From Planctomycetota bacterium (lineage in GTDB: Bacteria > Planctomycetota > SZUA-567 > H5-PLA8), in NCBI GenBank assembly GCA_038227875.1, contig JBBRPR010000093.1, positions 1 to 22,730 of the forward strand: a stretch of DNA of 22,730 nucleotides, in the 5' to 3' direction. The position numbers and the translations under genes were made by a program. The stretch's first letter is position 1; every line of letters starts with the position of its first letter. Positions 730-20,739 of this stretch are shown here, piece after piece. The notes below the pieces were generated by a model. The model saw only the letters and a list, made by a program, of their open reading frames with translations, made no database searches and was not told where the DNA came from.

Positions 730-1357
730 CTAGTGTAGTGTATTGAAAATAGAGTGACCTATAGCAGCGCGGACATGTTTCCTTTTCGAGGAGGGAACTT
801 GAACGTAAAACACGATCGATAGCAAAAAATAAGTTGTAAAAAGTAATACTAAAGGATTTATCACTAGTGCAATCGGTTTCAATAGCAAAGTCGGACATAT
901 TTTCCTAGCGACCCAACTGCATTTTTAAGTCATTTGTGCGTAATATTTTGTGGATTTTAAATATTCTGTTCATGACTTCTATTTGATCAAAATAAGCCAA
1001 TCTCCATGTTGTAAATAGTAGGACTGCTGTTTTTCTGTCAGTCCAGTCAAGTGTCTCCTTGGCGCCGCTATTTGTTGGAGGTGCAGCTTGTTCCATCATC
1101 GCTCCAAGGTCAAAAGTCCGCTTGGACCCGTGGAAAGCCCACCTCTCGTCAGCGCTGCGGCTGCAGCCTCCTCGTTCTCAGCGGCCGAAACGCAGGGCTG
1201 GCATGCAGATGCCAGCTGGCTCTTTTGAATGTCGGAATCGTCTCGGTTTAGTACTGAAACCTCTCGCTGTATTGCTCTACGGCTGGTGTATCTTATGCCA
1301 CAGCGCACGCGGGAGATCGAGGCTGTACGCGCATTCCTTCACCTGAGAGGCATCGCC

Positions 1358-3949
1358 ATGAATCCACGCTACACCGCTCCAGTTCTGACCCTCTCGATCT
1401 TTGCGACCCTTGTATTTGGGCTCGCCACATTCGCGCTGGCAGGTGTCTCCGCGGCTGACACGCCGACCGCGCCAACCGCTGAATTGATCAGCGCGCTGAA
1501 GAAGGTCAAAGACGGTCCGCTGCCGCAAAATTTCGACCCCGGGCGCGGCGTGGAGTTCCTCGGTGACTACATCTACCTCAGCGGCATCACCGCCGGCACG
1601 ATTCATTATTTCAAACGAGACGTAAAGACCGGCACAGTCGCCTACGTCGGCGCGATCAACGACACCACGATCAAGTCGATGATCTTTCTGAAAGCCGCCG
1701 GCGGACACCTGTACGGACTGGGCTGGACCGTCTGGGGCGTCAACGACGACGGCAAATGCAAAGGGCTCTCCTGGTACGACATCGAACCGGGAACCGGCAA
1801 ACCCGTCCAGAAAGGCACGCTCGATGTCGCCTCCGCCGCGCTGTTCAATGCGCGTTTCATCACCGGTCCGGAAGGCAAGGAACTCTACGGTCTGTTCAAC
1901 ACCGCCGCGGGCGTGAAACTGACGTGGGTGAAACTGGCCGCCGACGGCACGCCCTCCGTGGGCGGCGAAGTGGCCGGGCAGGGGCTTTCCGAAAACCTGA
2001 GCCTCTCGCCAGACGGCAAGTTCATCTACTCTGTTGCCGATCACAAGATTTCGATCATCGATCGCAAGCCCACCGGCGAAATCGCGTACAAGGGCAACGT
2101 TTCGCTGGATCCGCTGTATCCCATCGATGGCCCCAAGGCCGAGAACGAACGCGATCTCCGCCCGTCGCTGGCGGGTATTTCTCCCGACGGCAAATGGTTC
2201 TATCTTTGCATGCACAGCAACGAAGGCTTCGCCAACAGTTACTTCGCGATCTACAAGCGCGACGTCGCATCGGGCGAGCTGACGCTTTCGGAAGGTGGCT
2301 CGGCGTCCAATCCCGTCTGCGCCCGCTTCGCCAATCTGGCCGGCATGGAACTCCAGTTCCTCCCCGGCAGCAGCACCAAGGCCTATCTCACGAGCGGAAG
2401 TTGCCTGCTGCAATCCGTCGAGGTGGATGGGGCCACCGGCCGGCTGTCGGTCCTCTCCGATCTGGTCTTGGGGAAAGCGGAAGAAGTGAAGTGCCGCCCG
2501 ATTCAGCCGATTCTCTTCGATTTCAAAAATGGTCTCATGTACGGCATGGGCGTCTGGCAAACTGGATCGTACGGCGAACACCAGCGCGGGCTCTGGACCG
2601 CGAAGCTCGGCACAACACCCGCCACCGGCGAACGCGCGGACCTCAAAGCCACTGTCGCTTCCGCCGCCGACGCCAAGCCCGCCAACGAAGCCGACTGGCC
2701 CTGCTGGCGCGGTCCCAACGGCGACGGCAAAGTGTCGCTCAAAGGCATCCGCAAGGATTGGTCCGGCGGGTTGCGAAAAGTCTGGGACGTCGCCGGCCTC
2801 AGCCCCGGGGACGTCACCTGGTCGGCGCCCATCGTCCAGGGCAACAAGCTCTTCGTGATGGGCACCCACGGCTTCGTCGACGAACTTTTCTGCTTCGATG
2901 CCGACAAAGGCGGCCGCCCGCTCTGGATCTCCGAACTTCCCGGCGGCGGAGGCGATGTCACGCGTTCGGGCGGTCGCGACGGCTGGTGCGGCGGGCCGGT
3001 CGCCACACCCTATGCCAGCGGCGACAAAATCTACGTGACCGTCGGCGGCCGCTTCACCTGTTTCCAGGCCGCCGATGGAAAAGTCCTGTGGCGCAAGAAC
3101 GTCCTCTCCGCCTGCCACGTCTACGCTGCCAGTCCACTGGCCTGGGACGGCGTGTTGATCGTGCCTGGGATCTTTCCCCCTGGCGAAAAGCCGAGTCTGC
3201 TCGCCGGATTGAAAGCCGACAGCGGCGAGATCGTCTGGCGCTACGGCGTCGGCGAACCCAATGGCGGCGACTCGCCCACATTCGGCCACGTCTCTCCGTT
3301 GCGCATGAAAATCAACGGCGTCGAGCAGGTCGTCTACAACACTGGCGCGCTGGCTTGCGGCCTCGACCCCAAGACCGGCAAGCCGTACTGGGAACACCGC
3401 TACGTGGTGAAAGGCTCGAACGTCAATGCCACCGAACCGGTCACCGACGGCAGCATTCTCGCCGTGATGCTCGGCGATGGCGAAGGCTCGCCCATGGGCG
3501 TCCAGATCGAGAACAACACGACCGCCAAACCGCTGTGGGGCAAGAAGGGTTTCCGCGCGATGTGGAGCGACCCGATTCTGCGCGACGGATTCCTCTATAT
3601 GTTCGCGTCGGACGGACTCTACAGCGCCGGCAACAGCGACTTCCGTTGCGTGGATATAAAGACCGGCGACGCCAAGTGGATCGAAAAGAAAACCGGCTGC
3701 GGCACGACCGTCGAAGTCGACGGCTCTCTGCTCTGCCTGACCTATTCCGGAGACCTCTGGCTGCTCAATCCGACGCCGGAAGGCTTCAAAAAAATCACCG
3801 AATGGAAAGGTGCGATCAAGACCGAGCCCTGGTGGACCGCCAACGGCGGCAACTCCCCTGCCCCCTGCTGGTCGGTCCCGGTAATCGCGCGCGGCAAGCT
3901 CTACCTGCGCTACAGCAACACTCTGGCCTGCTATGATTTGTTGAAATAA
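1358..3949 (+). CDS. Secreted double beta-propeller protein (863 aa): lactonase-like propeller plus PQQ-binding-like (BamB-like) propeller
   Basis: GAGAGG RBS before ATG 1358, preferred over the 1229 start; signal peptide. N-half has lactonase-type blade repeats (LSLSPDGKFIY, ISPDGKWFY, YKRDVASGELT). C-half has DWPCWRGPNGDG, CFDADKGGRPLW, GLDPKTGKPYW and WSVPVIARGKLYLR...CYDL. Confidence 0.9.
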   Translation: MNPRYTAPVLTLSIFATLVFGLATFALAGVSAADTPTAPTAELISALKKVKDGPLPQNFDPGRGVEFLGDYIYLSGITAGTIHYFKRDVKTGTVAYVGAINDTTIKSMIFLKAAGGHLYGLGWTVWGVNDDGKCKGLSWYDIEPGTGKPVQKGTLDVASAALFNARFITGPEGKELYGLFNTAAGVKLTWVKLAADGTPSVGGEVAGQGLSENLSLSPDGKFIYSVADHKISIIDRKPTGEIAYKGNVSLDPLYPIDGPKAENERDLRPSLAGISPDGKWFYLCMHSNEGFANSYFAIYKRDVASGELTLSEGGSASNPVCARFANLAGMELQFLPGSSTKAYLTSGSCLLQSVEVDGATGRLSVLSDLVLGKAEEVKCRPIQPILFDFKNGLMYGMGVWQTGSYGEHQRGLWTAKLGTTPATGERADLKATVASAADAKPANEADWPCWRGPNGDGKVSLKGIRKDWSGGLRKVWDVAGLSPGDVTWSAPIVQGNKLFVMGTHGFVDELFCFDADKGGRPLWISELPGGGGDVTRSGGRDGWCGGPVATPYASGDKIYVTVGGRFTCFQAADGKVLWRKNVLSACHVYAASPLAWDGVLIVPGIFPPGEKPSLLAGLKADSGEIVWRYGVGEPNGGDSPTFGHVSPLRMKINGVEQVVYNTGALACGLDPKTGKPYWEHRYVVKGSNVNATEPVTDGSILAVMLGDGEGSPMGVQIENNTTAKPLWGKKGFRAMWSDPILRDGFLYMFASDGLYSAGNSDFRCVDIKTGDAKWIEKKTGCGTTVEVDGSLLCLTYSGDLWLLNPTPEGFKKITEWKGAIKTEPWWTANGGNSPAPCWSVPVIARGKLYLRYSNTLACYDLLK

Positions 3950-4123
3950 CGGCCTTGAACACGCGGCGTTTAATAGGCCTTTGGGCTCCAGCCTGGACGG
4001 GCTTGCCATCTCGGGCTTCGACAGGTTTCGAAAACAGTGTCGACGACGCCGATCCGTCAGACATGCGCTTGATCTATCCCCCGCCCGAGCGGACCCGCGC
4101 GTCCTTGGTCGCGGGCACCGTGA

Positions 4124-5241
4124 ATAAGTTACTTTGCAACCTCCGCGATTTCTTTGGCGCTCAGTGCGCGGTTGTAGATGCGCAGGTCGTCGAGTTCTCC
4201 TTCGAAGCAATTCTCGCCGAGGTGCGACTGGGCGACGGTCAATGGAATGCCTTTCAGATTGAAATTGCCGCTAACGGTATCGGACTTCTCGCCGTTGAGG
4301 TAGCTGATCAGCGTGGTGCCGTCGAAGGTCATCGCCACATGGGTCCACTTGCCGACTTCCAGTTTGGGGCTTAGTTGCGGTCCGCCCCAGGTACCGAAGG
4401 CGGTGCCGCCGGCGGGGTTGATCAGCCAATGGTGGCTGCCATCGCCCTCTCCACCCAGCAGCAGCAGCCACGCGCGCGTCTCCGGCAGTTTAGCGATCTT
4501 GATCCATGCCATGATGGTGTGTGGCGTATTTCCGGGGGTGAGTCCGTTGATGCTGGCGACACTCGCTCCGCTGTTGGAGCCCGCGGGGAAGGAGAGAGCG
4601 CCGTTGCTTCGGCCTTCAACCCAGGCGATTCTGCCGTTCAGCGTTCCGTCATTCAGATTCTCCGAAGCGTCTTCGGCGGTGGAGCCCATCCAATCTTTAA
4701 GTTTCCAAGACAACACGACGTCGCCGCCGGATTTGAGCGGCGCCGGGTTTTCAGACACCGTAAACGTCAGCGACTCACTGCGCGGCTCGCCCTGATCGAC
4801 CGGAAAGCATGGATACGTCAGATTGACGGTGTCGCCGGCTTTCCATGTTTTGTCGGTGGTCAGAATCACGCCGGTCGGAACGAGTTTGACATTCGTCACA
4901 GCCGCGCCGGAGATAGCATAGGTGGAAACCGCAGTCCAGATTTTGTGATCGAGGGAAGCTTTGCATTGCAGCTCGATCGTGTTGGCCTCGCATTTTGTGC
5001 ATTTAAGAACGCGCGCGGCACTCCAGCTGAACGCGGACACCGGCAGGCCGTTCTTCCCTTTTAGCGAGCCACTCGCTGCATACGAAATTTTGAATGGCGC
5101 GGGGACGTCTTTGATGTCGATGACAAGACTGTCACCGTCGAGCTTCGTCCTGGCCGGTTGGATGCCGGTGCGGCTGATGATCAGAACATCTTTCAAGCCA
5201 TTGGGCCCCAATGAGCCACCGGTCTGTCCGAATTGGAAGGT
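4124..5241 (-). pseudogene. 5'-truncated copy of the 3' 1.1 kb of the 13512..16475 gene (beta-rich stalk plus LamG domain)
   Basis: Colinear, indel-free match to 13507-14624 at constant offset 9383; about 47 mismatches by hand count (~96%). Stop at 4129-4131. No propeller region and no convincing start. Confidence 0.85.
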
Positions 5242-5622
5242 CGCGGCGATTTCGTGAATGTCGGCAGCACCGTTAATTCCGCCACAACCGACAACGCTGG
5301 ACAGAAGAACCCAGCAGCACCGCCTGAATTCTAGTTATTCCAATTCTCCTATGGAAAGAACTCGCACTACCGAATCTTCACTGCCGCGTTCAATCCAAAC
5401 GTATTCGCCAATGCACCAAATGTCGCGGATTTCTCGCCCCTGCAAGGTGCGCCGTTAGTCGCCGAGGTGGGCCGCCTTGACGGAACACAACTTTCTTGTG
5501 AATAAACAATTCAAGCGAGTAAACGCAAGAGTTCTTGGTCGGCAAATGGCGTTGGAAGCCAATGGCAGTCGTTTAGGACTGGCATTGGGACTTGCATCGT
5601 CGCCCTTAAAAGACGAGGTCCG

Positions 5623-6012
5623 CTAGTTTGACGGCGCTATCACTTTCGGAGACATCCTGACTATCACCGTTTTCAACTTCATCGCACAGTCCTCGGAATT
5701 GGGACTATCTGAGCGCAATGCTGCCAGAGCGTGATCGATGGACTTGTCGACCACTGTCCAGGCCGTTTCCGATTTTGGCCGCATTACCACTTCTGCGTTG
5801 TCCCAGGCCGTTTCTAGATCCTTGATCCGCGCTTTGGCGCCGGCCATGTCCTTTTTCTCAACGATTGCCAGCGTGTCCTCGGCAATTTTCTTGAATTCGG
5901 CAAGATCGCCCAGTGCGGCGATGTCGGCACTGGCAGTGGTGGGCTTTTTTGCGGTGGAACAGCCGGCGAGTTGAATCAACACCAACACAGCGAGGATAGG
6001 TTTTTTAAACAT
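5623..6012 (-). CDS. Small helical lipoprotein (129 aa), paralog of 7928..8299
   Basis: MFKKPILAVLVLIQLAGC lipobox. GGAG RBS lies inside the end of secDF, and the ATG is 1 nt after the secDF stop. Motif LGDLxxF...KxLExAWD...WxVVDKxID.AL. Confidence 0.9.
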   Translation of the reverse strand: MFKKPILAVLVLIQLAGCSTAKKPTTASADIAALGDLAEFKKIAEDTLAIVEKKDMAGAKARIKDLETAWDNAEVVMRPKSETAWTVVDKSIDHALAALRSDSPNSEDCAMKLKTVIVRMSPKVIAPSN

Positions 6013-6013
6013 T

Positions 6014-7828
6014 CTATTCTCCAAGAACAGGCGTCGTTACGGATTTCGGCGTGCAAGTAAGGCTGTACCAGATTGGACAAACCAAAAAAATCGACGAATA
6101 CGCACCGCAGATCAATCCCAGCAGGATCGCCAGGGCGAACATTTGTAGCGGTTCGCAACCGAGGAAAAGCAACGATGCGGACGCGGCCACCACGGTGAGT
6201 ACGGTGTAAAGTGAACGTGACATCGTCTGCCAAATACTCAGGCGAATCACCCGCAGCAAATCCTCGTTTGGCAGCAACGCCCGGTTTTCACGCAGCCGGT
6301 CGAAGATCACGATCTTATCGTTGATTGAGTAGCCCATCACCGTCAGGATCGCCGCGATGAATGTTACGTCTACTTCAAGCTTGAATAACGCGAATAGTCC
6401 CACTACGACCAGGATGTCATGAAGCAGCGCAAGAATGGTTGCCACGCCTGTCTGCCACGAAAACCGCCACGAAATAAAGAGCAGAATTCCCAGTCCCGAA
6501 ATCACGATCGACTGAATCGCCTTCGCGCCCAGTTCGGCCGCCATACCCGGATCGGACGTGTTCTCTTCGAACACTACCTTCGCGCCGTAAACTTTCTTAA
6601 AGGCGTTAACGGCCTGATTCAGGTCATCGGGCGCGAGCACACCGTCGAACCGAGCCGCGACGTGATCATTTTCATTTCCGCCGATCGCCACCGTCGCCGC
6701 CGGCACACCCGCGTCGAGAAAAATCTGTTCGGCCCTTCGCTGATCAATGGTTGCACCGACATCGATGTCCAGCGCGGTGCCGGCCGTGAAATCAATGTCC
6801 CAGTTGAAACCATAAGCGTAGTAGCCCCAGCCGCCGGCGGCCAGGATCGCCAGTGAGAGCCCCGCCGCCCGCCAGCGCGTTTTGACGAAGTCGTAGCGGC
6901 GCTCCGGCGCTTGGTGGAGATTCGGGGGGAAAAATGCGGCCGCGGGAATTGCATTACTGTTCACGAGCAGGTTCAGCAGCCAATGCGACAGAAACACATT
7001 AGTAACCAGGCTAATCGCGATGCTGGCGATCATGCTCAGCGAAAAACCCTGAATCGGGCCGATGCCCACCGCGTAAAGCACGATCAGCGCGATGCTGGCT
7101 GTGATGTTCGCGTCGAGAATTGTGCGCAGCGAGCCTGAAAATCCTGCTGGCACCGCTGCTTGGAGCGCTTTTCCATGCCGCAACTCCTCCTTGATGCGCT
7201 CGAAGGCGATGATGCTCGCGTCGGCGGCCATGCCGATACCCAGCACAAACGCTACGACCGCCGACAACGAGAGCGTCGCATGAATCAGATTGAAGAGCAC
7301 CAGCATCAACCACAGATGCGTCGCCAGCATCAGCACAGAGACGACCCCGGCAAGTCGGTACATCGCGATCATGAACGTCAATACCAGCATCGCGCCGACA
7401 ATACCAGCCGTGAGCGTTTCCTTCAGCGCCGTTGCGCCAAGCACCCCGCCGACTGTCTGCGTGTAACGTTCGACCAGCTTTGCCGGCATCGCTTCCGGTC
7501 CGCTGAGGATTTCGCGGATTTGGTCTTTCGTAGACAATCCCGCGATCTTGATGCGAATGCGATTAGAGCCTTCCAGTGCGATCTCCGGCTCCGCCATACC
7601 CAGCGAATTGGCCCGGCGTTCCAGGATGGCAGCGGCCGCAACAAGTTCCTGGTGCGTTAGTGTTTTGCCGGTGTTGAGCGGTTCGGCCGCGTACAGGATT
7701 TCATAGCCGCCATTGAATTCGAGTCCCAATCGGATGTTTTTAAGTAGTCGCTTCGAACTCAATCCGACTACACAAGTCAACGCTGCTATTGTGAACAGCG
7801 CCAGAATCAGCCTGTTTTTTTCGTGCAT
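6014..7828 (-). CDS. secDF: Fused protein translocase subunit SecDF (604 aa), unusually short
   Basis: AGGAGG RBS 5 nt before ATG 7828. SecD motifs LGLEFNGGYEILY, IGMAADASIIAFERIKEE and TILDANIT; SecF motifs DIDFTAGT, ALLHD, GYSINDKIVIFDRLRE, TMSRS and GAYSSIF; about 12 hydrophobic segments. Confidence 0.92.
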   Translation of the reverse strand: MHEKNRLILALFTIAALTCVVGLSSKRLLKNIRLGLEFNGGYEILYAAEPLNTGKTLTHQELVAAAAILERRANSLGMAEPEIALEGSNRIRIKIAGLSTKDQIREILSGPEAMPAKLVERYTQTVGGVLGATALKETLTAGIVGAMLVLTFMIAMYRLAGVVSVLMLATHLWLMLVLFNLIHATLSLSAVVAFVLGIGMAADASIIAFERIKEELRHGKALQAAVPAGFSGSLRTILDANITASIALIVLYAVGIGPIQGFSLSMIASIAISLVTNVFLSHWLLNLLVNSNAIPAAAFFPPNLHQAPERRYDFVKTRWRAAGLSLAILAAGGWGYYAYGFNWDIDFTAGTALDIDVGATIDQRRAEQIFLDAGVPAATVAIGGNENDHVAARFDGVLAPDDLNQAVNAFKKVYGAKVVFEENTSDPGMAAELGAKAIQSIVISGLGILLFISWRFSWQTGVATILALLHDILVVVGLFALFKLEVDVTFIAAILTVMGYSINDKIVIFDRLRENRALLPNEDLLRVIRLSIWQTMSRSLYTVLTVVAASASLLFLGCEPLQMFALAILLGLICGAYSSIFLVCPIWYSLTCTPKSVTTPVLGE

Positions 7829-7927
7829 CAATGCCTCCTACGATTTGAGACACGAAAAATGTAGCGATCTTCGAAAATTAGGTGGGAACTTGACCTTTAG
7901 TTAGGGTGTCAAAGTAACCGCTAAAAA

Positions 7928-9220: not shown

Positions 9221-9502
9221 ATGACAATCCAGCCAAGCAGCGACAATTCCAACTCAAAAACGGTTCAAGCTCCCATCGCCCCGGCGGCCCCGGCCCCGAC
9301 CGATTCTAAGCGGGAGGTTGCGAGTCCAGAAGGCAAAGTGCGGGCGGATTTGCTGGAGCTTTCACCCGCAGCACAAAAACTCGTGCAGAGTGGAAACGGT
9401 CCCACCCCACAGCAGGCCCAACAACTGGCCGCGCTGTACGCGTCGGCCAGAGGAATGGTTATGGTTACCGGCCAATGGCGGAAATCAACGCTTCCGGCGT
9501 GA
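9221..9502 (+). CDS. Hypothetical low-complexity protein with FlgM-like DxxELSxxAxxL motif
   Basis: Pro/Ala/Ser-rich N-terminus, then ADLLELSPAAQKL. The 3' end overlaps the convergent receiver gene by 38 bp, so it may be truncated. Confidence 0.4.
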   Translation: MTIQPSSDNSNSKTVQAPIAPAAPAPTDSKREVASPEGKVRADLLELSPAAQKLVQSGNGPTPQQAQQLAALYASARGMVMVTGQWRKSTLPA

Positions 9503-9815
9503 ATGGCTTCCGGACAAATGTGACTATATTCAGAAAATCGGCGCGTGCTTCCGCGATGTTGCTGGCTGTCGTCAATATGATTCGAGTTTTCGGCGATTGC
9601 TCACGTATCTGTTGACAGAATGAAAACGCACTCGTCCCCGGCATCATGTAATCCATGACGATCACGTCCACGTCCATATCCAAAAGCATGGCTAGCGCCT
9701 TGTCTCGATTCTCCGCGACTTGAACGTGATAGCCCTCCACCCGCAAAATCAGAGCGGTAATTTCCCGGCTGTCACGGTCGTCTTCGATGACTAGAAATCG
9801 CGTTGCTTGAGACAT
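9465..9815 (-). CDS. Single-domain response regulator (CheY-like receiver, 116 aa)
   Basis: FLVIEDD, VIVMDYMMPG (phospho-Asp), IILTT and FVRKPF. Start moved to ATG 9815 so it does not overlap the kinase. Confidence 0.9.
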   Translation of the reverse strand: MSQATRFLVIEDDRDSREITALILRVEGYHVQVAENRDKALAMLLDMDVDVIVMDYMMPGTSAFSFCQQIREQSPKTRIILTTASNIAEARADFLNIVTFVRKPFTPEALISAIGR

Positions 9816-9873
9816 GGATGATTGCACTCCCACGTGACAAATCTGTTGAAGGTCCTTTCGAACACGGTCGCGC

Positions 9874-10989
9874 TCACTGCGCACTCGCGCGGCCCACCCC
9901 CTGCTTCTTCGGCAACACCACAATAAAATCCGTCCCTTTAGCTTCTGAACTTTCGATTCGAACTGTTCCGTGATGCGCAGCAACCATTCCGCTTACCAAC
10001 GCCAGGCCCAGACCCCATCCCGAATTGCTGGTGGCGTTGGAAGCCCGCAGAAATCTTTCGAACAACGTCGGCTGGATTTCGATTGGAATCGGGTTCCCTT
10101 CATTGTGAATTGTGAATCCTGCCTGGATCGCATCTTGCGTCAGCGTCACGAGGACCGGGGAATCTTGATTTCCGTATTTCAATGCATTGATGATCAGATT
10201 CTCCAGCACGCGGCGCAGGCCAGGACGGTTCCAGGCGCCACTCGTCGGCTCATCGGCGTTGAGTTCAAATCTGCTCCCATAGGTTTCCTTCATTTCCCGG
10301 ACTACATCCTTAATCAATTCGTCAAGGCGCATCTCTTCGAACTCAAAATCGATTCCCATGCCTGCGCGGATGCGGCTTACGTCCAGCAGTTCCTTGAGCA
10401 TCGAATCTAGACGCTCCATCGTGGTGTCGATTTTTCCGGCGGCTTTCAGCGCGCTTGCCGATACCGACGGATCTCGCTGGATGGCATACACCCACATCCT
10501 CGCGACAGAAATCGGCGCACGCAGATCGTGCACGAGCGTCAGCGAAAAGTGCTCCTGGATTTCGTTCTGTACATCGGCAAATCGCACCGCGACGTCACTC
10601 ACCGTCTGGTCGAATATATCCAGGATCAGATTCCGGTCCGTGATCGGCAACGGTCCATCGCTTTCCAGCACCTTCAGTGCGACGTCGCGCATAATCTGGA
10701 ACTCACGCACGATTTCGGCCAGCGTGTAACTCAGCGGTACACGGCTCTGCTGATGCAGCCTGGCGAATTTCAGCGCGCTGGCACGGTCTTCCGCCACTTG
10801 GTACCGCGTCCTGTTGATCGAATTGTCGAGAGCGAAAACAAGCTGGTCGAGGAACGATTGAAAATGATCCTTCATCAACAGCGACGTCACTCCCCAGGAC
10901 GAGGGGATCTCCTGGTGAGCACGCACTTCCCAATCGGCAAGAATTTTGGGCGAAACACGTCTTAACTTTTCTGAAGTCTGCTTTGACAC
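9874..10989 (-). CDS. Cytoplasmic sensor histidine kinase (helical RsbRD_N-like N-domain, HisKA, HATPase_c)
   Basis: GGAGGAG RBS with GTG start. H-box LVHDLRAPIS, N-box ENLIINALKY, G1 variant IHNEGNPI, F-box LFERF, G2 GWGLGL. No transmembrane segment. N-domain identity is inference. Confidence 0.92.
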   Translation of the reverse strand: MSKQTSEKLRRVSPKILADWEVRAHQEIPSSWGVTSLLMKDHFQSFLDQLVFALDNSINRTRYQVAEDRASALKFARLHQQSRVPLSYTLAEIVREFQIMRDVALKVLESDGPLPITDRNLILDIFDQTVSDVAVRFADVQNEIQEHFSLTLVHDLRAPISVARMWVYAIQRDPSVSASALKAAGKIDTTMERLDSMLKELLDVSRIRAGMGIDFEFEEMRLDELIKDVVREMKETYGSRFELNADEPTSGAWNRPGLRRVLENLIINALKYGNQDSPVLVTLTQDAIQAGFTIHNEGNPIPIEIQPTLFERFLRASNATSNSGWGLGLALVSGMVAAHHGTVRIESSEAKGTDFIVVLPKKQGVGRASAQ

Positions 10990-11017
10990 AATCTCCTCCC
11001 GGATTCCAAGCTTTCTT

Positions 11018-11572
11018 TCAGCCAGAAAGTTTGCGAATGGTCGAGATCAATTCGCGGGGAGCTGTCGTCTTGGATAGGCAAGGTATCGAAAGCGTTTTTG
11101 CCGTTTCAGACGCATTCGGCGCGGTCGAAAACAGCACCATCGGCAGCATTCCATACCGCTCCCTGACCAACTCGACAAATTGCTCCAGTTTCATTCCAGG
11201 CATGTTCCAATCGACAATGATCAGCGCGGCGATTTCATGCGTCAAAATGTCCAACGCGTTATCCCGGGACGAGCAGGTTTTTACGCAGAAGCCTTCCAGC
11301 GCCAGCAGCGTGGACAGCGAATCCCGAAATGCCTCTTCGTCATCAATCACCAGCAACAGCTTCGACGCCGTTCTCCCGGAAACATCTGCACCTGGCGGTA
11401 GCACATCGATCTCGAGCAGCGACTGCGTCGAAAATTCGACACAGCCGTTGCATCGCGGGCATTTGGCCGTGTAACCCAGGTCTGAAGCAGGCACCGTAGG
11501 CGCTTCGATATACACGTCGAACGCGTTCCCACATCCAGCGGCGCCGCACGTTTGCATCGTTTTGAAATACAT
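11018..11572 (-). CDS. Response regulator with N-terminal Cys-rich zinc-ribbon-like domain and C-terminal receiver
   Basis: CGAAGC...CPRC in the first 45 aa. Receiver motifs LLLVIDDE, LIIVDWNMPG, MVLFS and LSK. Confidence 0.85.
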   Translation of the reverse strand: MYFKTMQTCGAAGCGNAFDVYIEAPTVPASDLGYTAKCPRCNGCVEFSTQSLLEIDVLPPGADVSGRTASKLLLVIDDEEAFRDSLSTLLALEGFCVKTCSSRDNALDILTHEIAALIIVDWNMPGMKLEQFVELVRERYGMLPMVLFSTAPNASETAKTLSIPCLSKTTAPRELISTIRKLSG

Positions 11573-11637
11573 GATCAGTCACTTCCACGCAGTGAGGCGA
11601 TGAGCGAATTACGAAAATTGACCGGCCAGAGCGCCCT

Positions 11638-12972
11638 TCACTGAGCGCTCTCAGGTGCGTCCCTTTCGTACGATTGCAATTTTATGACCAGAGTGCTGCG
11701 CGCCATCTGCAGGATCTTGGCCGCTTCGGACTTGTTTCCGTTCACACTTTCCATGACTCTAAGAATGTGACTCTGTTCAGCCGCGGCCATCGATTGGAGC
11801 GCATGGCCGGAATTTAAATTTGCCACCGCGTCTCCGTGCAATCCCAATTCGTCCGATTGAATGACATTGCCGGCTGAAAAAATGATTCCGTGCTCGATCG
11901 CCGCGCGCAATTCCCGGACGTTTCCCGGCCACGTATAGCTCTGCAAGCGGTCTTCTGTTGCCGCGCTGATGCTGCGCGTCCCGCCGCTCAGGAACCGAAC
12001 GAAGTGGCGCGCCAGCGGAATGATGTCCTCGCGGCGTTCGCGCAATGGCGGAACCACCAGCGTCACCGTGGCCAGCCGGTAATACAAGTCTTCGCGGAAC
12101 GCGCGCGTCTTGCAGGCCTCGCGCAGATCCTTGTTCGTCGCACAAATGATGCGCACGTTCACATGCTGATCCTTGTCGCTGCCCACGGGATGAACCATGC
12201 TGTCTTGGAGCGTGCGGAGTAGCTTGGTCTGCAGCGTGTAGCTGAGATCGCCGATTTCGTCGAGGAACAGCGTGCCCCCGTCGGCTTCGACAAACGCGCC
12301 CTTGCGATCCTTGTCCGCGCCGGTAAACGACCCCTTCTTGTGGCCGAACATCTCCGATTCGAATAGATTCTCGGGAATCGCCGCACAGTTGCGTGCCACG
12401 AAAATCTTTTTCGCGTCAGTTGAAAGTTCGAAGAGCTTCAGCGCAATGCATTCCTTGCCCGTTCCGCTCTCGCCCAGAATCAATACGCTCGCCTTGCTGG
12501 CCGCGGCCTTGCGAACGCGTTCCAGCAGCAGCTTCATGCTCGGCGATTCCGCGATCATTTCGACGGACGAGTTTGATTTGCGCAGCTGCGCCACTTCGCG
12601 TCGCAGTTCGCGTGTTTCTTCCACGCGGTCGAGGCGTACCTTGAGTTGATCGAAAGCGAAAGGCTTTTGTAAAAAGTCGGAGGCGCCCTCTCGCATGGCA
12701 TCGACCGCCACATTCACCGAGCCGTTGCCGGTGATGAGAATGACGGAGATCTCTGCGTTGCGCGTGCGGATTTCCTTAAGGAACCGCATCCCGTCAATGC
12801 CAGGCATCACCAGGTCGGTCAGTACGACGTCCCACTGGCGGCCTTCCAAAGCAGTCAGGGCCGTAGCCGCCGACTCATGCGCCTCCACGACGTATCCGGC
12901 GTGTAACAACTCCTGCGTCATGATTTCACGCATATCAGCCTGATCATCGACAATTAAAATGCGCAAGCTCAT
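11638..12972 (-). CDS. Sigma54-dependent response regulator (NtrC/AtoC-like REC-AAA+-Fis HTH, 444 aa)
   Basis: ILIVDD and VLTDLVMPG; Walker A GESGTGKE; ESEMFGHKKGSFTGA; Walker B LFLDEIG; FREDLYYRL; WPGNVREL; HTH GNKSEAAKILQMARSTL. Confidence 0.95.
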   Translation of the reverse strand: MSLRILIVDDQADMREIMTQELLHAGYVVEAHESAATALTALEGRQWDVVLTDLVMPGIDGMRFLKEIRTRNAEISVILITGNGSVNVAVDAMREGASDFLQKPFAFDQLKVRLDRVEETRELRREVAQLRKSNSSVEMIAESPSMKLLLERVRKAAASKASVLILGESGTGKECIALKLFELSTDAKKIFVARNCAAIPENLFESEMFGHKKGSFTGADKDRKGAFVEADGGTLFLDEIGDLSYTLQTKLLRTLQDSMVHPVGSDKDQHVNVRIICATNKDLREACKTRAFREDLYYRLATVTLVVPPLRERREDIIPLARHFVRFLSGGTRSISAATEDRLQSYTWPGNVRELRAAIEHGIIFSAGNVIQSDELGLHGDAVANLNSGHALQSMAAAEQSHILRVMESVNGNKSEAAKILQMARSTLVIKLQSYERDAPESAQ

Positions 12973-13259
12973 ATATCGAGGGTTCTCGGTATCGGGAAGT
13001 GCCTGTAGCAAGTGCTTTCGCATAACTTAATCGCAAAGCTTGAGCCAATGGCGAAGCGAAACCATCGCCGATATTCGGTATGATTTTCCTTGAAGTGTAT
13101 GGATTTCGATTGAGATGCCCGATTATCGGGAACTTCGTAGACAAGCTTGTGAAACGAGCCAGCGATGACTTCCAGCGCGAGATCGGTGAGTTCGGGAACG
13201 TCGCGGATTAGAGTGGGTTCCATTTGCGAGGGCGACTCATAGCAGGCTGTCATTTTCAA
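12969..13259 (-). CDS. Small hypothetical protein (up to 96 aa), translationally coupled to the sigma54 regulator
   Basis: Its TGA overlaps the downstream ATG (ATGA, 12969-12972). Start uncertain (TTG 13259 or a later ATG). Confidence 0.45.
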   Translation of the reverse strand: MKMTACYESPSQMEPTLIRDVPELTDLALEVIAGSFHKLVYEVPDNRASQSKSIHFKENHTEYRRWFRFAIGSSFAIKLCESTCYRHFPIPRTLDI

Positions 13260-13511: not shown

Positions 13512-16475
13512 TTACTTTGCAATCTCCGCGATTTCTTTGGCGCTCAGTGCGCGGTTGTAGATGCGCAGGTCGTCGAGTTCTCCTTCGAAACAATTCTCGC
13601 CGAGGTGGGACTGGGCGACGGTTAACGGGATACCTTTCAGATTGAAATTGCCGCTAACGGTATCGGACTTCTCGCCGTTGAGGTAGCTGATCAGCGTGGT
13701 GCCGTCGAAGGTCATCGCCACATGGGTCCACTTGCCGACTTCCAGTTTGAGGCTTAGTTGCGGTCCGCCCCAGGCACCGAAGGCGGTGCCGCCAGCGGGG
13801 TTGATCAGCCAATGGTGGCTGCCGTCGCCCTCTGCACCCAGCAGCAGCAGCCACGCGCGCTTCTCCGGCAATTTGGCGATCTTGATCCATGCCATGATGG
13901 TGTGTGGCATATTTCCGGGGGAGAGTCCGTTGATGCTGGCGACGCTCGCTCCGCTGTTGGAGCCCGCGGGAAAGGAAAGAGCGCCGTTGCTTCGGCCTTC
14001 AACCCAGGCGATTCTGCCGTTTAGCGTTCCGTCGTTCAGATTATCCGAAGCGTCTTCAGCGGTGGAGCCCATCCAATCTTTAAGTTTCCAAGACAGCACA
14101 ACGTCGCCGCCGGACTTGAGCTGCGCCGGGTTTTCAGACACCGTGAACTTCAGTGACTCACCGCGCGGCTCGCCCTGATCGACGGGAAAGCACGGATACG
14201 TCAGATTGACGGTGTCGCCGGCTTTCCATGTTTTGTCGGTGGTCAGAATCACGCCGGTCGGAACGAGTTTTACATTCGTCACGGCCGCGCCGGAGATGAC
14301 ATAGGTGGAAATCTCAGACCAGATTCTGTGATCGAGGGAAGCTTTGCATTGCAGCTCGATCGTGTTGGCCTCGCATTTTGTGCATTTAAGAACGCGCGCG
14401 GCACTCCAGCGGAACGCGGACACCGGCAGGTCGTTCTTACCTTTTAGCGAGCCACTCGCTGCATACGAAATTTTGAATGGTGCGGGCACGTCTTTGATGT
14501 CGATGACAAGACTGTCACCGTCGAGCTTCGTCCTGGCCGGTTGGATGCCGGTGCGGCTGATGATCAGAACATCTTTCAAGCCATTGGGCCCCAATGAGCC
14601 ACCGGTCTGTCCGAATTGGAAGGTGAGCGTGTCTTTTTTCGTGATCACGTCTTTCACGTAAACGTGGTGTTCCTGCAGATCGTAGCAGGCTATGCCCATC
14701 TCCGTGCGCAAGAACAGCTTGCCATTGGCCAGCGCCATCGGCGCCCAAGGAACGACGCCGGGATCGAAAGTGCCGAGCGGAATGCACTTTTCCGGCGTCG
14801 CACTCACCATCGCGATTTTGTAGTCCTCCATCAAATAGTCGCCAAAGCCTTTGCCGACCGCCATGAGGATTTTTCCGTCGGCGAGGATCGAGGGCGTGTT
14901 TTCGGCGAAGTACGCATTGCCGTATTGCCAATTCAATGCGCCGGTCTTCAAATCAAAGCAGCACAAGCCGCCGATCTTCTGACGGCTGCCTTCGATACCG
15001 TTGACCAATTGGTATAGATGATCCTGATGGATCACCTGGTTGGCGTTGAATAGCGTGGTGGGAGAACATTCGGCTAGCGCGGCGACGGGCTGCAATTCCT
15101 GTTGCGTCATTGTGTAGATCTTACCCTCCGAGACGAACGCATTGCCATCGCGGCGACTGGCAAAATTGACCAGGGAGAATCCGCTGTTTTTGTACTTCAA
15201 TGTCCACGAGTCTTTGCCTGTTTCCAGGTCCATGCAGAAAATCGAATTCGTGGCGGCGCCGTCGCTGGCGATGATGCAGGTCTTTCCGCCGGAGGTCCAC
15301 AGCGACGGCGAGGTATTGCGGCCCCAATCATTCCAGCCCTTGTTGCTATCGCTTTTCCACACTGGCGTTTTCCAGAGCACCTTGCCGGTGTCGGCCTGAT
15401 ACGCCACGCCGCAATAGTAGACCACGCCATTGGCAACCAATACAGAGACGTGTTCGACGCCGCACTTGGACTGCCAGAGTACTGCGCCGTCTTTCGCGGA
15501 AAGACAATATAAGCCGCCGGCGCCGACAAAATAACATTTGCCGTTCCACACCGCCGGCGAACCGCAGAGGCCCAGAATGTCCGCCGTCCCGATGTAAATG
15601 TTTTTCAGTTTTTGAAGGGACTCGGCATCGAGCGGAAACTCCTTTTTCCAGAGCAACTTGCCGGTCGACGCGTCGAGGCAGACGAGCAGATCCAACTTCG
15701 TAAAGCTGCGCCGCCACGCGCTTTCCAGAATAGCCGAATTGTTAAAATGACGGTCGAGCGCGTTTTCCCATTTGAGTTCCTTTGGAAGTTGCGCCACACA
15801 TTCCCGCAAACTTACATAACCACCGGGTTTCAACTTGCTCAGTTTGACCAGATGTTCCCACGGTAGGCCGGTGGGCATACACAGTCGCCGGCGAATGAAA
15901 TCGCCATACTTCGCCGCCTCCGCTGGAGGCAATGTCGCGACGAAATCCTTGATGTACTTGTCCAACTCCGGTTGCTTGGACAGGTATTCGATCAGCTCCT
16001 TATCCTTTTCTTTCAGGTCTTTGGGATCCAGCCATTGCCAACCCGGAGCAGCGGGGCGGTCTTTGGCCGTACGCGCGACTTCGATTTTCTGGATCAGTTC
16101 TTCCGGCACGTCGCTGCGCCAACCCGCGCTTTCCAGAAATTCCGTCGAGAAGATGTTGTAGCGGTCGCCGCCGCCCACAGGTTGCTTGGCCGTCGCATAC
16201 ACGAACACTTTGCCGTCCGCCACCACCGGACCGCTGCAGCCGCCCTGGTACCAGCCGGGAATCCGTTCGCTCTTCCAGGCCAGCGGCGGACCTTCCTCCG
16301 GCCACGTGTCCAGCAATTTGGGGCTGTAAACTGCGATGCTGTCCCGATTCGGTCCACGGTACTGCGGCCAGTCGCTGTTCGTTTCGTTGGTCGCAGACTC
16401 CTGTGGTGGCGCTACGGCGGATAGCGCGCGCGTTGCCACCAAGCAGAGTAACAACACGAGCGGCAATCGCGTCAT
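13512..16475 (-). CDS. Secreted PQQ-binding-like beta-propeller protein with helical insert, beta-rich stalk and C-terminal LamG/ConA-like domain (987 aa)
   Basis: GAGGAG RBS and signal peptide. Propeller motifs DWPQYRGPNRD, CLDASTGKLLW and MALANGKLFLR...CYDL. LamG motifs TIMAWIK, GKWTHVAMTFDG..LISYLNG and FEGELDDLRIYNRALS..EI. Confidence 0.93.
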   Translation of the reverse strand: MTRLPLVLLLCLVATRALSAVAPPQESATNETNSDWPQYRGPNRDSIAVYSPKLLDTWPEEGPPLAWKSERIPGWYQGGCSGPVVADGKVFVYATAKQPVGGGDRYNIFSTEFLESAGWRSDVPEELIQKIEVARTAKDRPAAPGWQWLDPKDLKEKDKELIEYLSKQPELDKYIKDFVATLPPAEAAKYGDFIRRRLCMPTGLPWEHLVKLSKLKPGGYVSLRECVAQLPKELKWENALDRHFNNSAILESAWRRSFTKLDLLVCLDASTGKLLWKKEFPLDAESLQKLKNIYIGTADILGLCGSPAVWNGKCYFVGAGGLYCLSAKDGAVLWQSKCGVEHVSVLVANGVVYYCGVAYQADTGKVLWKTPVWKSDSNKGWNDWGRNTSPSLWTSGGKTCIIASDGAATNSIFCMDLETGKDSWTLKYKNSGFSLVNFASRRDGNAFVSEGKIYTMTQQELQPVAALAECSPTTLFNANQVIHQDHLYQLVNGIEGSRQKIGGLCCFDLKTGALNWQYGNAYFAENTPSILADGKILMAVGKGFGDYLMEDYKIAMVSATPEKCIPLGTFDPGVVPWAPMALANGKLFLRTEMGIACYDLQEHHVYVKDVITKKDTLTFQFGQTGGSLGPNGLKDVLIISRTGIQPARTKLDGDSLVIDIKDVPAPFKISYAASGSLKGKNDLPVSAFRWSAARVLKCTKCEANTIELQCKASLDHRIWSEISTYVISGAAVTNVKLVPTGVILTTDKTWKAGDTVNLTYPCFPVDQGEPRGESLKFTVSENPAQLKSGGDVVLSWKLKDWMGSTAEDASDNLNDGTLNGRIAWVEGRSNGALSFPAGSNSGASVASINGLSPGNMPHTIMAWIKIAKLPEKRAWLLLLGAEGDGSHHWLINPAGGTAFGAWGGPQLSLKLEVGKWTHVAMTFDGTTLISYLNGEKSDTVSGNFNLKGIPLTVAQSHLGENCFEGELDDLRIYNRALSAKEIAEIAK

Positions 16476-17781: not shown

Positions 17782-20739
17782 TTATTTCCCCGCCTGCCCC
17801 GGCGGGTCGACGAATACGCCGCTGACGGTGGCGTTTTCTTTTCCGGTACTGAGGAAGTGGAAGGATGCTTGTCCCTTGATCTTCCAAACCAGATACTTTC
17901 CGTTCTTGAAATCCATCACGGTCTGAGTATCGAGTACGGCATCCGACACGGCGTCACGGACCTCCACTTTCACCGCTCTTCCCAACGCATCCCAATCCAT
18001 GAAGTACACGGCCACCTGATGCTCTTTGTCGTCCGTAGTTCCGACGTCGATATCGAAGGCCGTATCGCTAAACCAGCAGGCGGCGATGCGATCCTTGGCG
18101 TCGCCGGATTTTAGCAGCGCTCGGGCCTCTTGAGTCGTATCGACCCAGGTGCAATCCCGCTGATTCCTCGGGGTGACCGCGGCACACTTGGGAATGACCG
18201 ACGCGGCGTCGTGTTGGACCACCGCGCCTTCGGACCCATAGACGCCTTTCCACCCTCCAGACGTGGTTTCATCAGTCTTCACGAATTTTGCTGTCGCATG
18301 GACGACTTCCGGCGCGGTGAAGGTCAGTGTCTCACGCCGGGGGTCTCCCTGATCGACCTGAAAACACGGATACGTCAACGTTACAGTGTCGCCGGCCTTC
18401 CACGTCTGGTCTGTGGTCAAGGTTACGCTCTCGGCAAAGACGCTGACGGTGGTGACCTTCGCTCCAGAGACATCGAAATTTGCGGCGTTGTTCCAACCGG
18501 CTGTGAGCGGACGATTGCTGGTCAGGACAATCGTTTGATCAAAGCACTTCGCGTATTTCAGAGCGCGCACCGCGTTCCAGCTAAAGCCAGGTGCCGGGAG
18601 TTCATTCTTTCCCGCGAGCGCTCCGGTGCCTGCATAGGAAATCCCGAACGGAATGGGGACATCCTTGATATCAACCACGATTGTGTCGCCCGTCATCGTC
18701 GCCTTGGCCGGTTTGGCCGCGCCCTTGGCGTCGGTGATCATAACTTCCTTCGGGTCGTTCGTCCCATCTTTCAAAACGAGTCCGCCACCGGTCTGTTTGA
18801 AGCGGAAAGCAAGCGAGTCCTTCTTCGCAGTAACGCCCTCGAGATAAATGCCATGCTCTGCCAGATCGTAGCAGGAAATCCCAAATACAGTGCGGATGAA
18901 GAGTTTGCCGTCGGCCAGCGCCATGGGTGCCCAGGGAATCATGCCGGGCGCGAAGCATCCGAGTGGCTCAAATTTTTCAGTTGTCGCCCGCAGCATCAGC
19001 ACGTCCATGGATTTATCCCCGCCCCAGAAGTAGTAAGGGAGATCACAGATAGACATCAGGATCTTGCCGTCAGCCAGAATCGAGGGCGTCAGGCGGTACC
19101 CTTCAGTCCCAAGCCAGACTTCCTGCCTGACACCTTCCGACATCACGCCTTTCAAGTCCTTGGCCGTAACATCGCAGTTCCATTTGTCTTCCCCGGTCTT
19201 CAGATCCCAGCAGTTCACTCCCTGGTTCTTCAGGTGTCGTCCTTCCCCGGGATGGGTTTCCTGAAAGAGATACCCCTGATCAATAATGCCGCCGTTCATG
19301 ACAGGCTTGCCATCCACGGTCGTCTGCACCGGCGTCACCGCCGTCGGGCTCATCCGGTAGACTGTGCCCCCGGCTGTTAAAAGATCCCCATCGCGCCGCA
19401 AGGCAAACCAGTTAGGAACCCATCCGCGGGAAAAGACTTTACACGTCCACGCTTCTTTGCCGGTCTGCAGGTCCAGACACAAGAGCGTGGAGGAACCGCC
19501 GTTCACATCCACGACATAGTCCTTGCCGTCCGCGCGCCAGAGCACTGGCGAGGTGTTGGCGTCCCGGCACTTCTTCCAGAGCGGGGTTCGCCAGAGCTCC
19601 GCGCCGGTGTCGGCGCGGTAGGCCACGCCAGCGAAATACACCACACCGCCGCACACGAGCACAGAGGCCTGCGTTGGCGGAACGCTGGCTTTCCACAGGA
19701 TGGCGCCATCCTTGGCAGACAGACAGTAGAGCCCGGTGAATCCAGAAAAATAGCAGCGGCCAGCCGCGACGGCCGGCGTACCGCATGCCCCGAGGTTTTG
19801 AAACCACATGCTGTCGTCACAGGTCCCGAACCACGCCAAGGTTCTGTCATCCATCGGAATTTCCGTTGCCCAGAGTTTCTTTCCCGTGGCAGCATCCAGA
19901 CAGGTCAGTTGATCAACACGCGTGAATGATTTTTCAAATGCGCTCTTTAGAAACTTGTCGACAATCATGTACTTAGAGAACACGGGCGTCTGCACTCCGC
20001 CCTTGACCCAGGCAGCACCCACCGGAGCGCACGACTCCAGCACGGTGGCAAACTTCTGTCCCCGCGACTGTTCCAATTCGACGAGCGCAACACGGGTCAG
20101 CCCGTTATTAGCGTTCCAGTCCAATTTTGGTCTTGCGCAGAAGCGATATCGAATATAGGCGCCATATTTAAGCGCCTCCTCCGGGGTCAAGGTGGCGATG
20201 AAATCCCGGATGAATTTGTCCAACTCCGGCGATTTGGCCAGATATTCATCCGCAGCCTTATTTCGTTCCACCTCGTTACGAATCTCCCACCAGGAAAAAC
20301 TGGCGCCTTCCGGCATCGGGTGTTCTGGGGAAAGACGAGCCGCTTCAATCCGTTTTGACAGCTCTTCCGGCAATCCCGGCAGCCATCCTGCAGAGGCCAG
20401 CGCATCTGGCGTGAAGATATCGTAAGCCGCCCCACCCCCCACAGGTTTCTTTGCCGTTGCGTAGACGAACACCTTTCCGTCTGCCACCACGGGGCCGCTG
20501 CAGCCACCCTGGGTATAACCGGGGATCAGGTCACTTTTCCAGACCAGTGCCGGTCCGTTTTTCGGCCATGAGTTCGCCAGTTTCGGGCTGTTCGCCGCCA
20601 CGCTATCCCGATTCGGCCCGCCGAACTGCGGCCAGCCCTCATCAGCCGGCTGCGCTGGGCTTTCGGCGGCAACAGATATCGACTGTAGAATCGCAAGTGC
20701 AACTAGACACATGACACCTATCTTTCTCATAGTTTCCAT
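17782..20739 (-). CDS. Secreted PQQ-binding-like beta-propeller protein (985 aa), paralog of 13512..16475 with a different C-terminal beta-sandwich-like domain
   Basis: GAGAGGAG RBS and signal peptide. GWPQFGGPNRDS and shared IPG..QGGCSGPVVADGKVFVYATAK, PWAPMALA.GKLF.R and TWKAGDTV.LTYPCF.VDQG.PR. Tail DETTSGGWKGVYG...RIAACWF...YFMDWD...GKYLVW...VSGVFVD. Confidence 0.93.
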   Translation of the reverse strand: METMRKIGVMCLVALAILQSISVAAESPAQPADEGWPQFGGPNRDSVAANSPKLANSWPKNGPALVWKSDLIPGYTQGGCSGPVVADGKVFVYATAKKPVGGGAAYDIFTPDALASAGWLPGLPEELSKRIEAARLSPEHPMPEGASFSWWEIRNEVERNKAADEYLAKSPELDKFIRDFIATLTPEEALKYGAYIRYRFCARPKLDWNANNGLTRVALVELEQSRGQKFATVLESCAPVGAAWVKGGVQTPVFSKYMIVDKFLKSAFEKSFTRVDQLTCLDAATGKKLWATEIPMDDRTLAWFGTCDDSMWFQNLGACGTPAVAAGRCYFSGFTGLYCLSAKDGAILWKASVPPTQASVLVCGGVVYFAGVAYRADTGAELWRTPLWKKCRDANTSPVLWRADGKDYVVDVNGGSSTLLCLDLQTGKEAWTCKVFSRGWVPNWFALRRDGDLLTAGGTVYRMSPTAVTPVQTTVDGKPVMNGGIIDQGYLFQETHPGEGRHLKNQGVNCWDLKTGEDKWNCDVTAKDLKGVMSEGVRQEVWLGTEGYRLTPSILADGKILMSICDLPYYFWGGDKSMDVLMLRATTEKFEPLGCFAPGMIPWAPMALADGKLFIRTVFGISCYDLAEHGIYLEGVTAKKDSLAFRFKQTGGGLVLKDGTNDPKEVMITDAKGAAKPAKATMTGDTIVVDIKDVPIPFGISYAGTGALAGKNELPAPGFSWNAVRALKYAKCFDQTIVLTSNRPLTAGWNNAANFDVSGAKVTTVSVFAESVTLTTDQTWKAGDTVTLTYPCFQVDQGDPRRETLTFTAPEVVHATAKFVKTDETTSGGWKGVYGSEGAVVQHDAASVIPKCAAVTPRNQRDCTWVDTTQEARALLKSGDAKDRIAACWFSDTAFDIDVGTTDDKEHQVAVYFMDWDALGRAVKVEVRDAVSDAVLDTQTVMDFKNGKYLVWKIKGQASFHFLSTGKENATVSGVFVDPPGQAGK

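Follow-up and report, generated by a model that had tools for sequence, protein, structure and literature searches.

A conserved SecDF paralog without the P1 head, genetically coupled to a four-helix-bundle domain, in a Planctomycetota genome bin

In current models of SecDF, the P1 head swings to capture the emerging precursor, and this motion is driven by proton flow through the transmembrane (TM) core. Contig JBBRPR010000093.1 of a Planctomycetota bacterium (GenBank assembly GCA_038227875.1), analysed here over positions 1 to 22,730 of its forward strand (22,730 nucleotides, hereafter the window), holds a gene for a fused SecD-SecF protein in which the head is missing, and this raises the question of what such a protein can do. 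The original prediction for this locus took it to be a functional, natural minimal SecDF rather than a product of decay. We found a conserved head-less SecDF paralog that is under selection, carries the proton-relay residues, and is genetically coupled to a four-helix-bundle domain of ~95 aa, which we name HEL here. We consider it reasonably probable that the protein belongs to a distinct, old and horizontally mobile SecDF paralog family which, together with HEL, constitutes an accessory envelope module driven by the proton-motive force (PMF), with HEL as its periplasmic working part.

The open reading frame (ORF) of the head-less SecDF extends over window positions 6014..7831 on the minus strand and runs through 604 codons without interruption, as had been predicted. 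Its start codon is most likely the ATG at 7828, giving 604 aa, because it follows GGAGG at a distance of 7 nt and yields the same length as a database protein with 99% identity. Hydropathy gave a P1 loop of ~110-112 aa and a P4 loop of ~93 aa. According to Pfam, residues 66-110 match PF21760 (SecD_1st), two matches to PF02355 (SecD_SecF_C, E 1e-58) are present, and PF03176 (MMPL) covers residues 138-275 with 24.7 bits against a cut-off of 20.5. The Pfam model of the head, PF22599 (SecDF_P1_head), did not match the protein even at E<=1, and the same model detected the canonical SecDF encoded on another contig of this genome, C2, with 109 bits. By phmmer against PDB, residues 31-112 correspond to Thermus thermophilus (Tt) SecDF (3AQP) residues 31-109, and residues 96-587 to Tt 229-719; these alignment blocks leave Tt residues ~110-246 (~135 residues) without a counterpart. 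The predicted absence of the head was thus confirmed, and the range given for it, 7440-7740, which spans residues ~30-130 and hence the entire P1 loop, does contain the quoted sequence strings. The remaining short P1 may be read as ferredoxin-like. The relay residues were also intact as predicted, with D203, D504 and R538 aligned to Tt D340, D637 and R671, which are essential in Tt SecDF according to excerpts of a review (PMC5974789).

The original prediction had placed a direct junction at GPEA. The head is indeed missing there, but the loss is larger than a head removed at one point. Residues 96-112 (IAGLSTKDQIREILSGP) can be aligned without preference to either of two similar beta-alpha units, the one preceding the head (Tt 93-109) or the one following it (Tt 229-246), indicating that the head is missing together with one of these units. 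Residue 114 falls at positions 235-256 of the NCBIfam SecDF models. At the domain level the protein passed the cut-offs of TIGR00966 (SecF, 307 vs 160) and, barely, TIGR01129 (SecD, 249 vs 244.4), whereas it missed the cut-offs of all full-length NCBIfam SecDF equivalogs, the best of them being NF009581 with 493 vs 1058 bits.

A head missing from one gene could reflect a deletion peculiar to it, a state of decay as a pseudogene, or an assembly in which the two similar beta-alpha units had been collapsed. The flanks of the head position are alike, which could favour a collapse, and a frameshifted paralog is found in the same assembly. This second head-less SecDF, on contig C1 at ~297.9-299.7 kb (locus L090, 8889..10705, minus strand), has ~80% DNA identity to the window gene and the same junction, and a 1-nt deletion just before its GIGMAAD motif splits the frame into 221 aa and 433 aa. 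A search of 5.8 billion proteins gave 813 matches, of which the best 120 listed were used for the family analysis, and PF22599 was found in none of these best 120. The closest homologs (72-99% identity) are equal in length to the window protein and alignment shows no head, so the deletion is not private. We then compared the junction in an alignment of 121 rows, consisting of the 120 homologs without P0006 (a 391-aa fragment), the window protein, and the genome's own canonical SecDF. The spacing, counted as the residues that separate the KIAGL-type strand from the TVGGxLG motif, was 31 aa in 114 of the 121 rows, the window protein among them, and 30 aa in the other 7; the value for the canonical row reflects the alignment of its post-head unit.

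Comparison of the window gene with its C1 paralog gave a ratio of nonsynonymous to synonymous substitution rates (dN/dS) of 0.074 (dS 1.14, 602 codons), which was similar on either side of the junction, and the HEL gene downstream gave 0.11. The head-less SecDF is under strong purifying selection. Since dN/dS is low, the 1-nt deletion in the C1 paralog should be either very recent or an assembly error. A Logan contig from sequencing run X1 spans 7295-8400 without differences, which speaks against a collapse, although X1 is maybe the source sample and thus not independent; contigs from run X2 end at 7502 and do not bridge the junction. Among the sequencing runs listed for the sequence, none is of RNA. 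Decay or assembly artefact was therefore rejected as scarcely conceivable, on the strength of the junction conserved across many phyla, the dN/dS of 0.07 and the intact frame, as far as sequence evidence goes. The two paralogs share 74% identity over ~82 nt that include the ribosome-binding site and the start codon (window 7796..7877), and the remaining upstream DNA is unalignable; no Rfam match was found in this conserved start region.

The relationship between head-less and canonical proteins was examined with a FastTree phylogeny built from 183 core columns of the SecD half of 30 head-less proteins and 17 canonical SecD(F) proteins, the latter including copies from the same genomes as the head-less ones. 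The 30 head-less proteins formed one clade apart from the 17 canonical ones, with SH-like support of 1.0 and a branch length of 1.0. Since a single clade holds head-less proteins from many sources, the head-less state defines an old family. Within it, the clade of the window protein is sister to a clade of proteins fused to HEL, and head-less SecDFs without HEL make up the other main clade. The low dN/dS, the conserved spacing, the single clade and the homologs lacking PF22599 all agree with the predicted absence of decay, and by its sequence the gene appears to be functional.

Whether a functional protein of this kind does the ordinary work of SecDF is a separate question. Contig C2 of this assembly (G000) encodes a SecDF of the canonical type with its head, in an open frame of 994 aa, and this protein is ~30% identical to the head-less one. 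All 10 other carriers of a head-less SecDF that were tested likewise encode a head-bearing SecD(F), making 11 of 11 when this genome is counted. In comparison, the head-less gene was found in 0 of 40 relatives from the same family, order and class, all of which have the long canonical form with ~30% identity to the query; this set includes one unpublished genome (G017), and the result is unchanged without it. Among 400 further genomes sampled evenly from the phylum, one (G398) contained a head-less homolog, which is 47% identical and fused to HEL. The head-less SecDF is not the general SecDF of the cell, and the canonical C2 copy fills that role.

The alternative is a true minimal SecDF, which would assist SecYEG-dependent export by means of a sheet formed by the P1 base and P4 together with the relay, perhaps conditionally in the manner of a second SecDF. 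Intact relay residues, the PF21760 and two PF02355 matches and the passed cut-offs of TIGR00966 and TIGR01129 are all consistent with this, and second SecDF copies with a role in export exist in Vibrio and Streptomyces, according to excerpts of one paper (PMC4139356). The head-less protein might even be the sole SecDF in a HEL-free clade with archaeal-type neighbours. However, the P1-head cavity is the documented site of contact with precursor proteins in the review excerpts cited above, so the canonical mechanism cannot apply as such to a protein without it. The canonical copies in all 11 carrier genomes, the single occurrence among 400 genomes of the phylum, the long branch to canonical SecD, the missed full-length cut-offs and the coupling to HEL likewise speak against a minimal SecDF, and we regard it as improbable. 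Thus, of the original prediction the functional and undecayed state stood, but a pared-down SecDF doing the ordinary SecDF job did not, in view of the coexisting head-bearing copies here and in 10 of 10 other carriers tested, the absence of the gene from 40 of 40 relatives and 399 of 400 sampled genomes, and its coupling, operonic here and covalent elsewhere, to a four-helix periplasmic domain.

That coupling begins with the immediate neighbours of the gene (Table 1). The proteins encoded on either side of the head-less SecDF both match the hidden Markov model of HEL (E 1e-37 and 2e-28) and contain the motifs LExAWD and W..xD..ID..L...R, the second of which reads W..VDKxID..L...R in the upstream protein. 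The ATG of the downstream gene lies one base past the SecDF stop codon (TAG A ATG), which suggests translational coupling, and the head-less paralog on C1 is also followed by a HEL lipoprotein gene, of 157 aa. No family model for HEL exists in Pfam or NCBIfam, where only sub-threshold matches were obtained, and a profile search returned 1019 clusters at E<=0.001 and 604 at E<=1e-10. Among 61 diverse HELs with either membrane partner, L43, E44, W47, D48, D66, D70, L73 and R77 are invariant. AlphaFold2, run with these 61 sequences on the mature part of the downstream lipoprotein, modelled a four-helix bundle (pLDDT 91, pTM 0.82), in which the acidic residues form two i/i+4 pairs, E44/D48 on helix 3 and D66/D70 on helix 4. 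Foldseek found nothing in PDB for this model at E<=0.001, and a protein atlas gave unnamed clusters only, one of which (score 0.89) has DUF4363 on 28% of its members.

Table 1. Positions in the window of the head-less SecDF gene, its parts and the flanking HEL genes
Feature	Position	Strand	Description
Upstream HEL, 123 aa	7928..8299	-	Predicted type-I signal peptide (...VRGAIA/AD, by eye), then four-helix-bundle domain
Head-less fused SecD-SecF paralog	6014..7828	-	604 aa and TAG stop; 12 TM segments (hydropathy)
Periplasmic P1 region, SecD_1st-type base only, without head	7418..7753	-	Residues 26-137; PF21760 at residues 66-110
GPEA, site of the P1 head in canonical SecD	7490..7501	-	Residues 110-113
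D203 in TM4	7220..7222	-	Equivalent to Tt D340 (esAspIV) by alignment
D504 in TM10	6317..6319	-	Equivalent to Tt D637 (esAspX) by alignment
R538 in TM11	6215..6217	-	Equivalent to Tt R671 (esArgXI) by alignment
Downstream HEL lipoprotein, 129 aa	5623..6012	-	Predicted lipobox LAG/C

In relatives, HEL and the head-less SecDF are frequently one polypeptide. The 121 proteins consisting of the window protein and the 120 listed homologs fall into three length classes: under 650 aa (63 proteins), 700-765 aa (17) and 800-877 aa (41). The longer classes carry HEL at the C-terminus behind an extra TM segment after TM12, in one copy in the 700-765-aa class and mostly in two copies in the 800-877-aa class. 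The free HELs of the window are 42-54% identical to these fused domains. A survey of 53 head-less SecDF loci in metagenomes showed SecDF-HEL fusions in 20, a separate HEL gene in 2 and DUF347 without HEL in 3, while 7 were cut by contig ends.

Seen from the side of HEL, a second membrane partner appears. Of the 80 top-ranking HEL loci in reference genomes, 78 had HEL fused or adjacent to DUF347 (69) and/or to head-less SecDF (12), and the 2 with neither partner were both contig-end fragments. A separate DUF347 (PF03988) gene adjoins HEL in 42 of the 80 loci, and 24 have a DUF347-HEL fusion; SecDF-HEL fusions account for 11 (3 of them with DUF347 too) and a separate head-less SecDF for 1. The two membrane partners also occur together, since DUF347 directly adjoins head-less SecDF in operons L011, L054, L056, L111, L133, L137, L139 and L157, and at L137 and L139 PepSY genes precede the pair. 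Of the 4 HEL genes in the present genome, 3 adjoin a head-less SecDF and 1 adjoins a DUF347 gene. The fourth HEL gene (124 aa; contig C124, locus L171, 2058..2432, plus strand) is ~440 nt upstream of a 292-aa DUF347 protein (2874..3752, plus strand). With HEL beside SecDF and beside DUF347, this genome thus holds both kinds of HEL module. Many ~280-aa YkoI-like proteins (P0150-P0209) are PepSY-HEL fusions, giving HEL a third fusion partner after head-less SecDF and DUF347.

Pairs of an OmpR-type response regulator and a histidine kinase flank many HEL, DUF347 and SecDF-HEL genes, and a typical order in Pseudomonas is DUF347, HEL, OmpR-type response regulator, histidine kinase. The regulators and kinases are generic OmpR/PmrA/QseB/CopR-like proteins that stay under the curated NCBIfam cut-offs, so no specific signal can be assigned to them. 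Such neighbours raise the alternative that the module is a signalling accessory, in which HEL, as a small protein of the periplasm, would modulate a histidine kinase or serve it as co-sensor, comparable to the PepSY protein DbfQ acting on DbfS, and SecDF or DUF347 would be an anchor or a sensor of the membrane or the PMF instead of a transporter. In many genomes these pairs stand directly beside DUF347 and HEL or beside SecDF-HEL, and the PepSY-HEL fusions in YkoI-like proteins would fit as well, since PepSY proteins beside two-component systems can regulate the kinase directly, according to excerpts of one study (PMC12714742). The invariant residues of HEL are the same with either membrane partner, which fits a common third partner or ligand. 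On the other hand, no OmpR-type two-component system is adjacent at the window, C1 or C124 loci. The full 12-TM core and the relay are kept at a dN/dS of 0.07, beyond what an anchor needs, and the covalent HEL-SecDF fusion points to a direct functional unit. We therefore hold a purely signalling role to be unlikely, though it is the most credible of the rivals considered here.

A transport role outside protein export was also considered, namely that of an RND-type exporter of small molecules or lipids, similar to HpnN or MmpL, which would move an envelope lipid or another hydrophobic compound with HEL as its periplasmic acceptor. The PF03176 (MMPL) match over TM2-6 (24.7 vs 20.5) and the near symmetry of P1 (~112 aa) and P4 (~93 aa) agree with this, as do a PAP2 phosphatase, PMT_2 glycosyltransferases and a MacB-like ABC/FtsX system near some relatives. 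But the protein is far more similar to SecD and SecF than to other RND families, and no lipid-related gene lies within the window. An hhalign comparison of P1 with P4 was topologically sensible but weak (probability 12%, E 0.0024), and was not used as evidence. An exporter of this type is, in our estimate, very improbable.

We return to the reading of an accessory envelope module driven by the PMF, for which the following mechanism may be proposed. The working unit would be the three-gene operon of a secreted HEL, the head-less SecDF and a HEL lipoprotein. Throughout the family P1 has shrunk to a base of roughly P4's dimensions and the substrate-binding head is absent. The window protein keeps the 12-TM RND core and the relay of TM4-Asp, TM10-Asp and TM11-Arg, which would most likely turn proton flow into movement of a small periplasmic sheet. 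The PMF-driven motion of this P1-base/P4 sheet may act on HEL or on matter held by HEL, so that membrane-held HEL would supply the handling of ligand or cargo, as the head does in canonical SecDF. Given the invariant acidic cluster of HEL and its DUF347, PepSY and OmpR-type partners elsewhere, the role is likely to be in the envelope or in cation stress, as an accessory, and not in general export.

Several observations weigh against this reading. First, the relay residues differ in parts of the family. In an alignment of 51 unfused family members (A3), the TM4 Asp position has D in 44 and G in 7, and the TM10 Asp position has D in 30, N in 13 and E in 8, while the TM11 Arg position has R in 51 of 51. 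Since the relay varies outside the window's clade, PMF coupling is proposed for that clade only. Second, HEL is not universal in the head-less family, because 21 of the 53 metagenome loci look complete and have neither HEL nor DUF347, 9 of them with flanks of 1.5 kb or more on each side. Third, the fold of HEL gives little guidance. VIA-align wide returned Z of at most 10.9 for the HEL model (designed bundles, talin, PsbQ, cytochrome b562, SMBP), and as such matches are under the level that is meaningful for helical bundles, the model is read no finer than as a four-helix bundle. Fourth, no OmpR-type two-component system, DUF347 or PepSY gene is located within the window, so the stress-response part of the reading is borrowed from relatives. 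Finally, the assembly is a bin with 88% completeness and ~4% contamination, and the window contig has a G+C content of 0.56 compared with 0.60-0.615 in the C1 and C2 regions. The contig may have been acquired as an island, or it may belong to a related organism and have been binned wrongly, and the co-residence of the head-less SecDF with the C2 SecDF consequently rests on the binning. The 10 other carrier genomes, which include named Pseudomonas assemblies, are independent of the quality of this bin.

Within the unfused family members, 6 of the 7 proteins with Gly at the TM4 Asp site carry Glu at the TM10 Asp site, and a clade with archaeal-type neighbours has Asn at the latter. HEL-free loci L117, L119, L120, L121, L128 and L145 are preceded by archaeal-type genes for HVO_0163-type and HTH_45 winged-helix regulators and a DUF7471-like protein. 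Some database members of the head-less family are labelled Nitrosotalea or Thaumarchaeota. This provides a lead that ammonia-oxidising archaea carry the head-less family, possibly as their only SecDF.

A bolder version of the reading can be formulated, in which the tethered four-helix bundle replaces the P1 head in a new proton-driven machine, which together with DUF347, PepSY proteins and two-component systems makes up a widespread system for cation or metal stress, and in which the HEL-free clade is maybe the sole SecDF of its hosts. We put this forward as a speculation that is doubtful on the present evidence, if somewhat less so than the rivals above. Should a HEL-free head-less protein really be the sole SecDF of a cell, it would reveal what the head-free SecDF core can do. 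Either the core has an activity that is independent of the head, or another protein provides the periplasmic part, and the fusions point to HEL. The matter is of interest because a large family, conserved across phyla, has dropped the head and kept the proton-relay core. HEL moreover links three poorly understood envelope components, namely head-less SecDF, DUF347 and PepSY proteins, and this link makes their function testable in culturable Pseudomonas. There is also an annotation problem, because head-less proteins are now named plain "SecF" or "SecDF".

Our searches of the open-access literature turned up neither a natural head-less SecDF nor HEL, but only engineered deltaP1 SecD and head-bearing second copies. 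New here are the natural head-less form of SecDF and its HEL partner domain; the sequences themselves are already in databases as "SecF" or "SecDF".

The other genes of the window include a signalling cluster at 9465..13023 (minus strand), which consists of a receiver-only response regulator, a soluble histidine kinase, a second receiver protein, and a sigma-54 activator with response regulator, AAA+ and HTH_8 domains. These genes differ from the OmpR-type pairs found beside HEL modules elsewhere. Four large proteins with PQQ_2 beta-propeller and/or Laminin_G_3 (concanavalin-like) domains are encoded at 1229..3949 (plus strand) and at 4129..5211, 13512..16475 and 17782..20739 (all minus strand), and appear to be paralogs of one family, probably secreted or located at the cell surface. 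A 977-aa ORF at 1277..4210 (minus strand), antisense to the first of these PQQ_2 genes and without a family match, is probably a spurious frame in G+C-rich DNA. The whole window gave no Rfam match, and a scan of 5300-8900 for promoters and terminators found sites no more frequent than in shuffled sequence.

Among known systems, the DUF347 (PF03988) membrane proteins are the alternative membrane partner of HEL, at 69 of the 80 HEL loci, and their fold, four repeats of a 52-residue unit, is unrelated to SecDF. Metal export by DUF347 proteins is a speculation in excerpts of a single paper (PMC4531530), and DUF347 was found in none of 14 control model genomes. The PepSY modules with two-component systems, DbfQRS in V. 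cholerae and PA2658/PA2659-BqsRS in P. aeruginosa, resemble the HEL loci elsewhere in that small exported proteins are encoded beside OmpR-type systems, and excerpts of a study describe a small periplasmic PepSY protein that directly regulates the neighbouring histidine kinase (PMC12714742). HEL differs from them as an all-helical bundle in place of the PepSY fold, and the window operon has no adjoining OmpR-type two-component system, unlike the DbfQRS and BqsRS modules. The TM core of the window protein is similar to that of other RND families, with PF03176 over its cut-off.

Another close system is canonical SecDF (Tt 3AQP/5YHF; D. radiodurans 5XAM/5XAN/5XAP), with which the window protein shares the fused 12-TM SecD-SecF arrangement, the two PF02355 domains, the N-terminal part of the P1 base (PF21760), P4 and the Asp/Asp/Arg triad. 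It differs by the missing P1 head and one beta-alpha unit (~135 aa), and as an accessory, patchily distributed, HEL-coupled protein in a separate clade on a long branch. Vibrio SecDF2, which is controlled by VemP, and the fused SecDF of Streptomyces coelicolor are likewise extra paralogs beside a housekeeping copy, and neither is linked to HEL. Vibrio SecDF2 retains its head. The S. coelicolor SecDF has 795 aa and two large extracellular domains, unlike the window protein, and the fused Streptomyces copy was proposed to be horizontally acquired, both according to the excerpts of PMC4139356. An E. coli SecD deltaP1 was engineered, purified and used as a control in atomic force microscopy, as described in excerpts of PMC9508474. 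The deltaP1 SecD is a laboratory construct, whereas the window protein is a natural and conserved form. By the claim of its title, Nouwen et al. 2005 reportedly found P1 to be needed for function.

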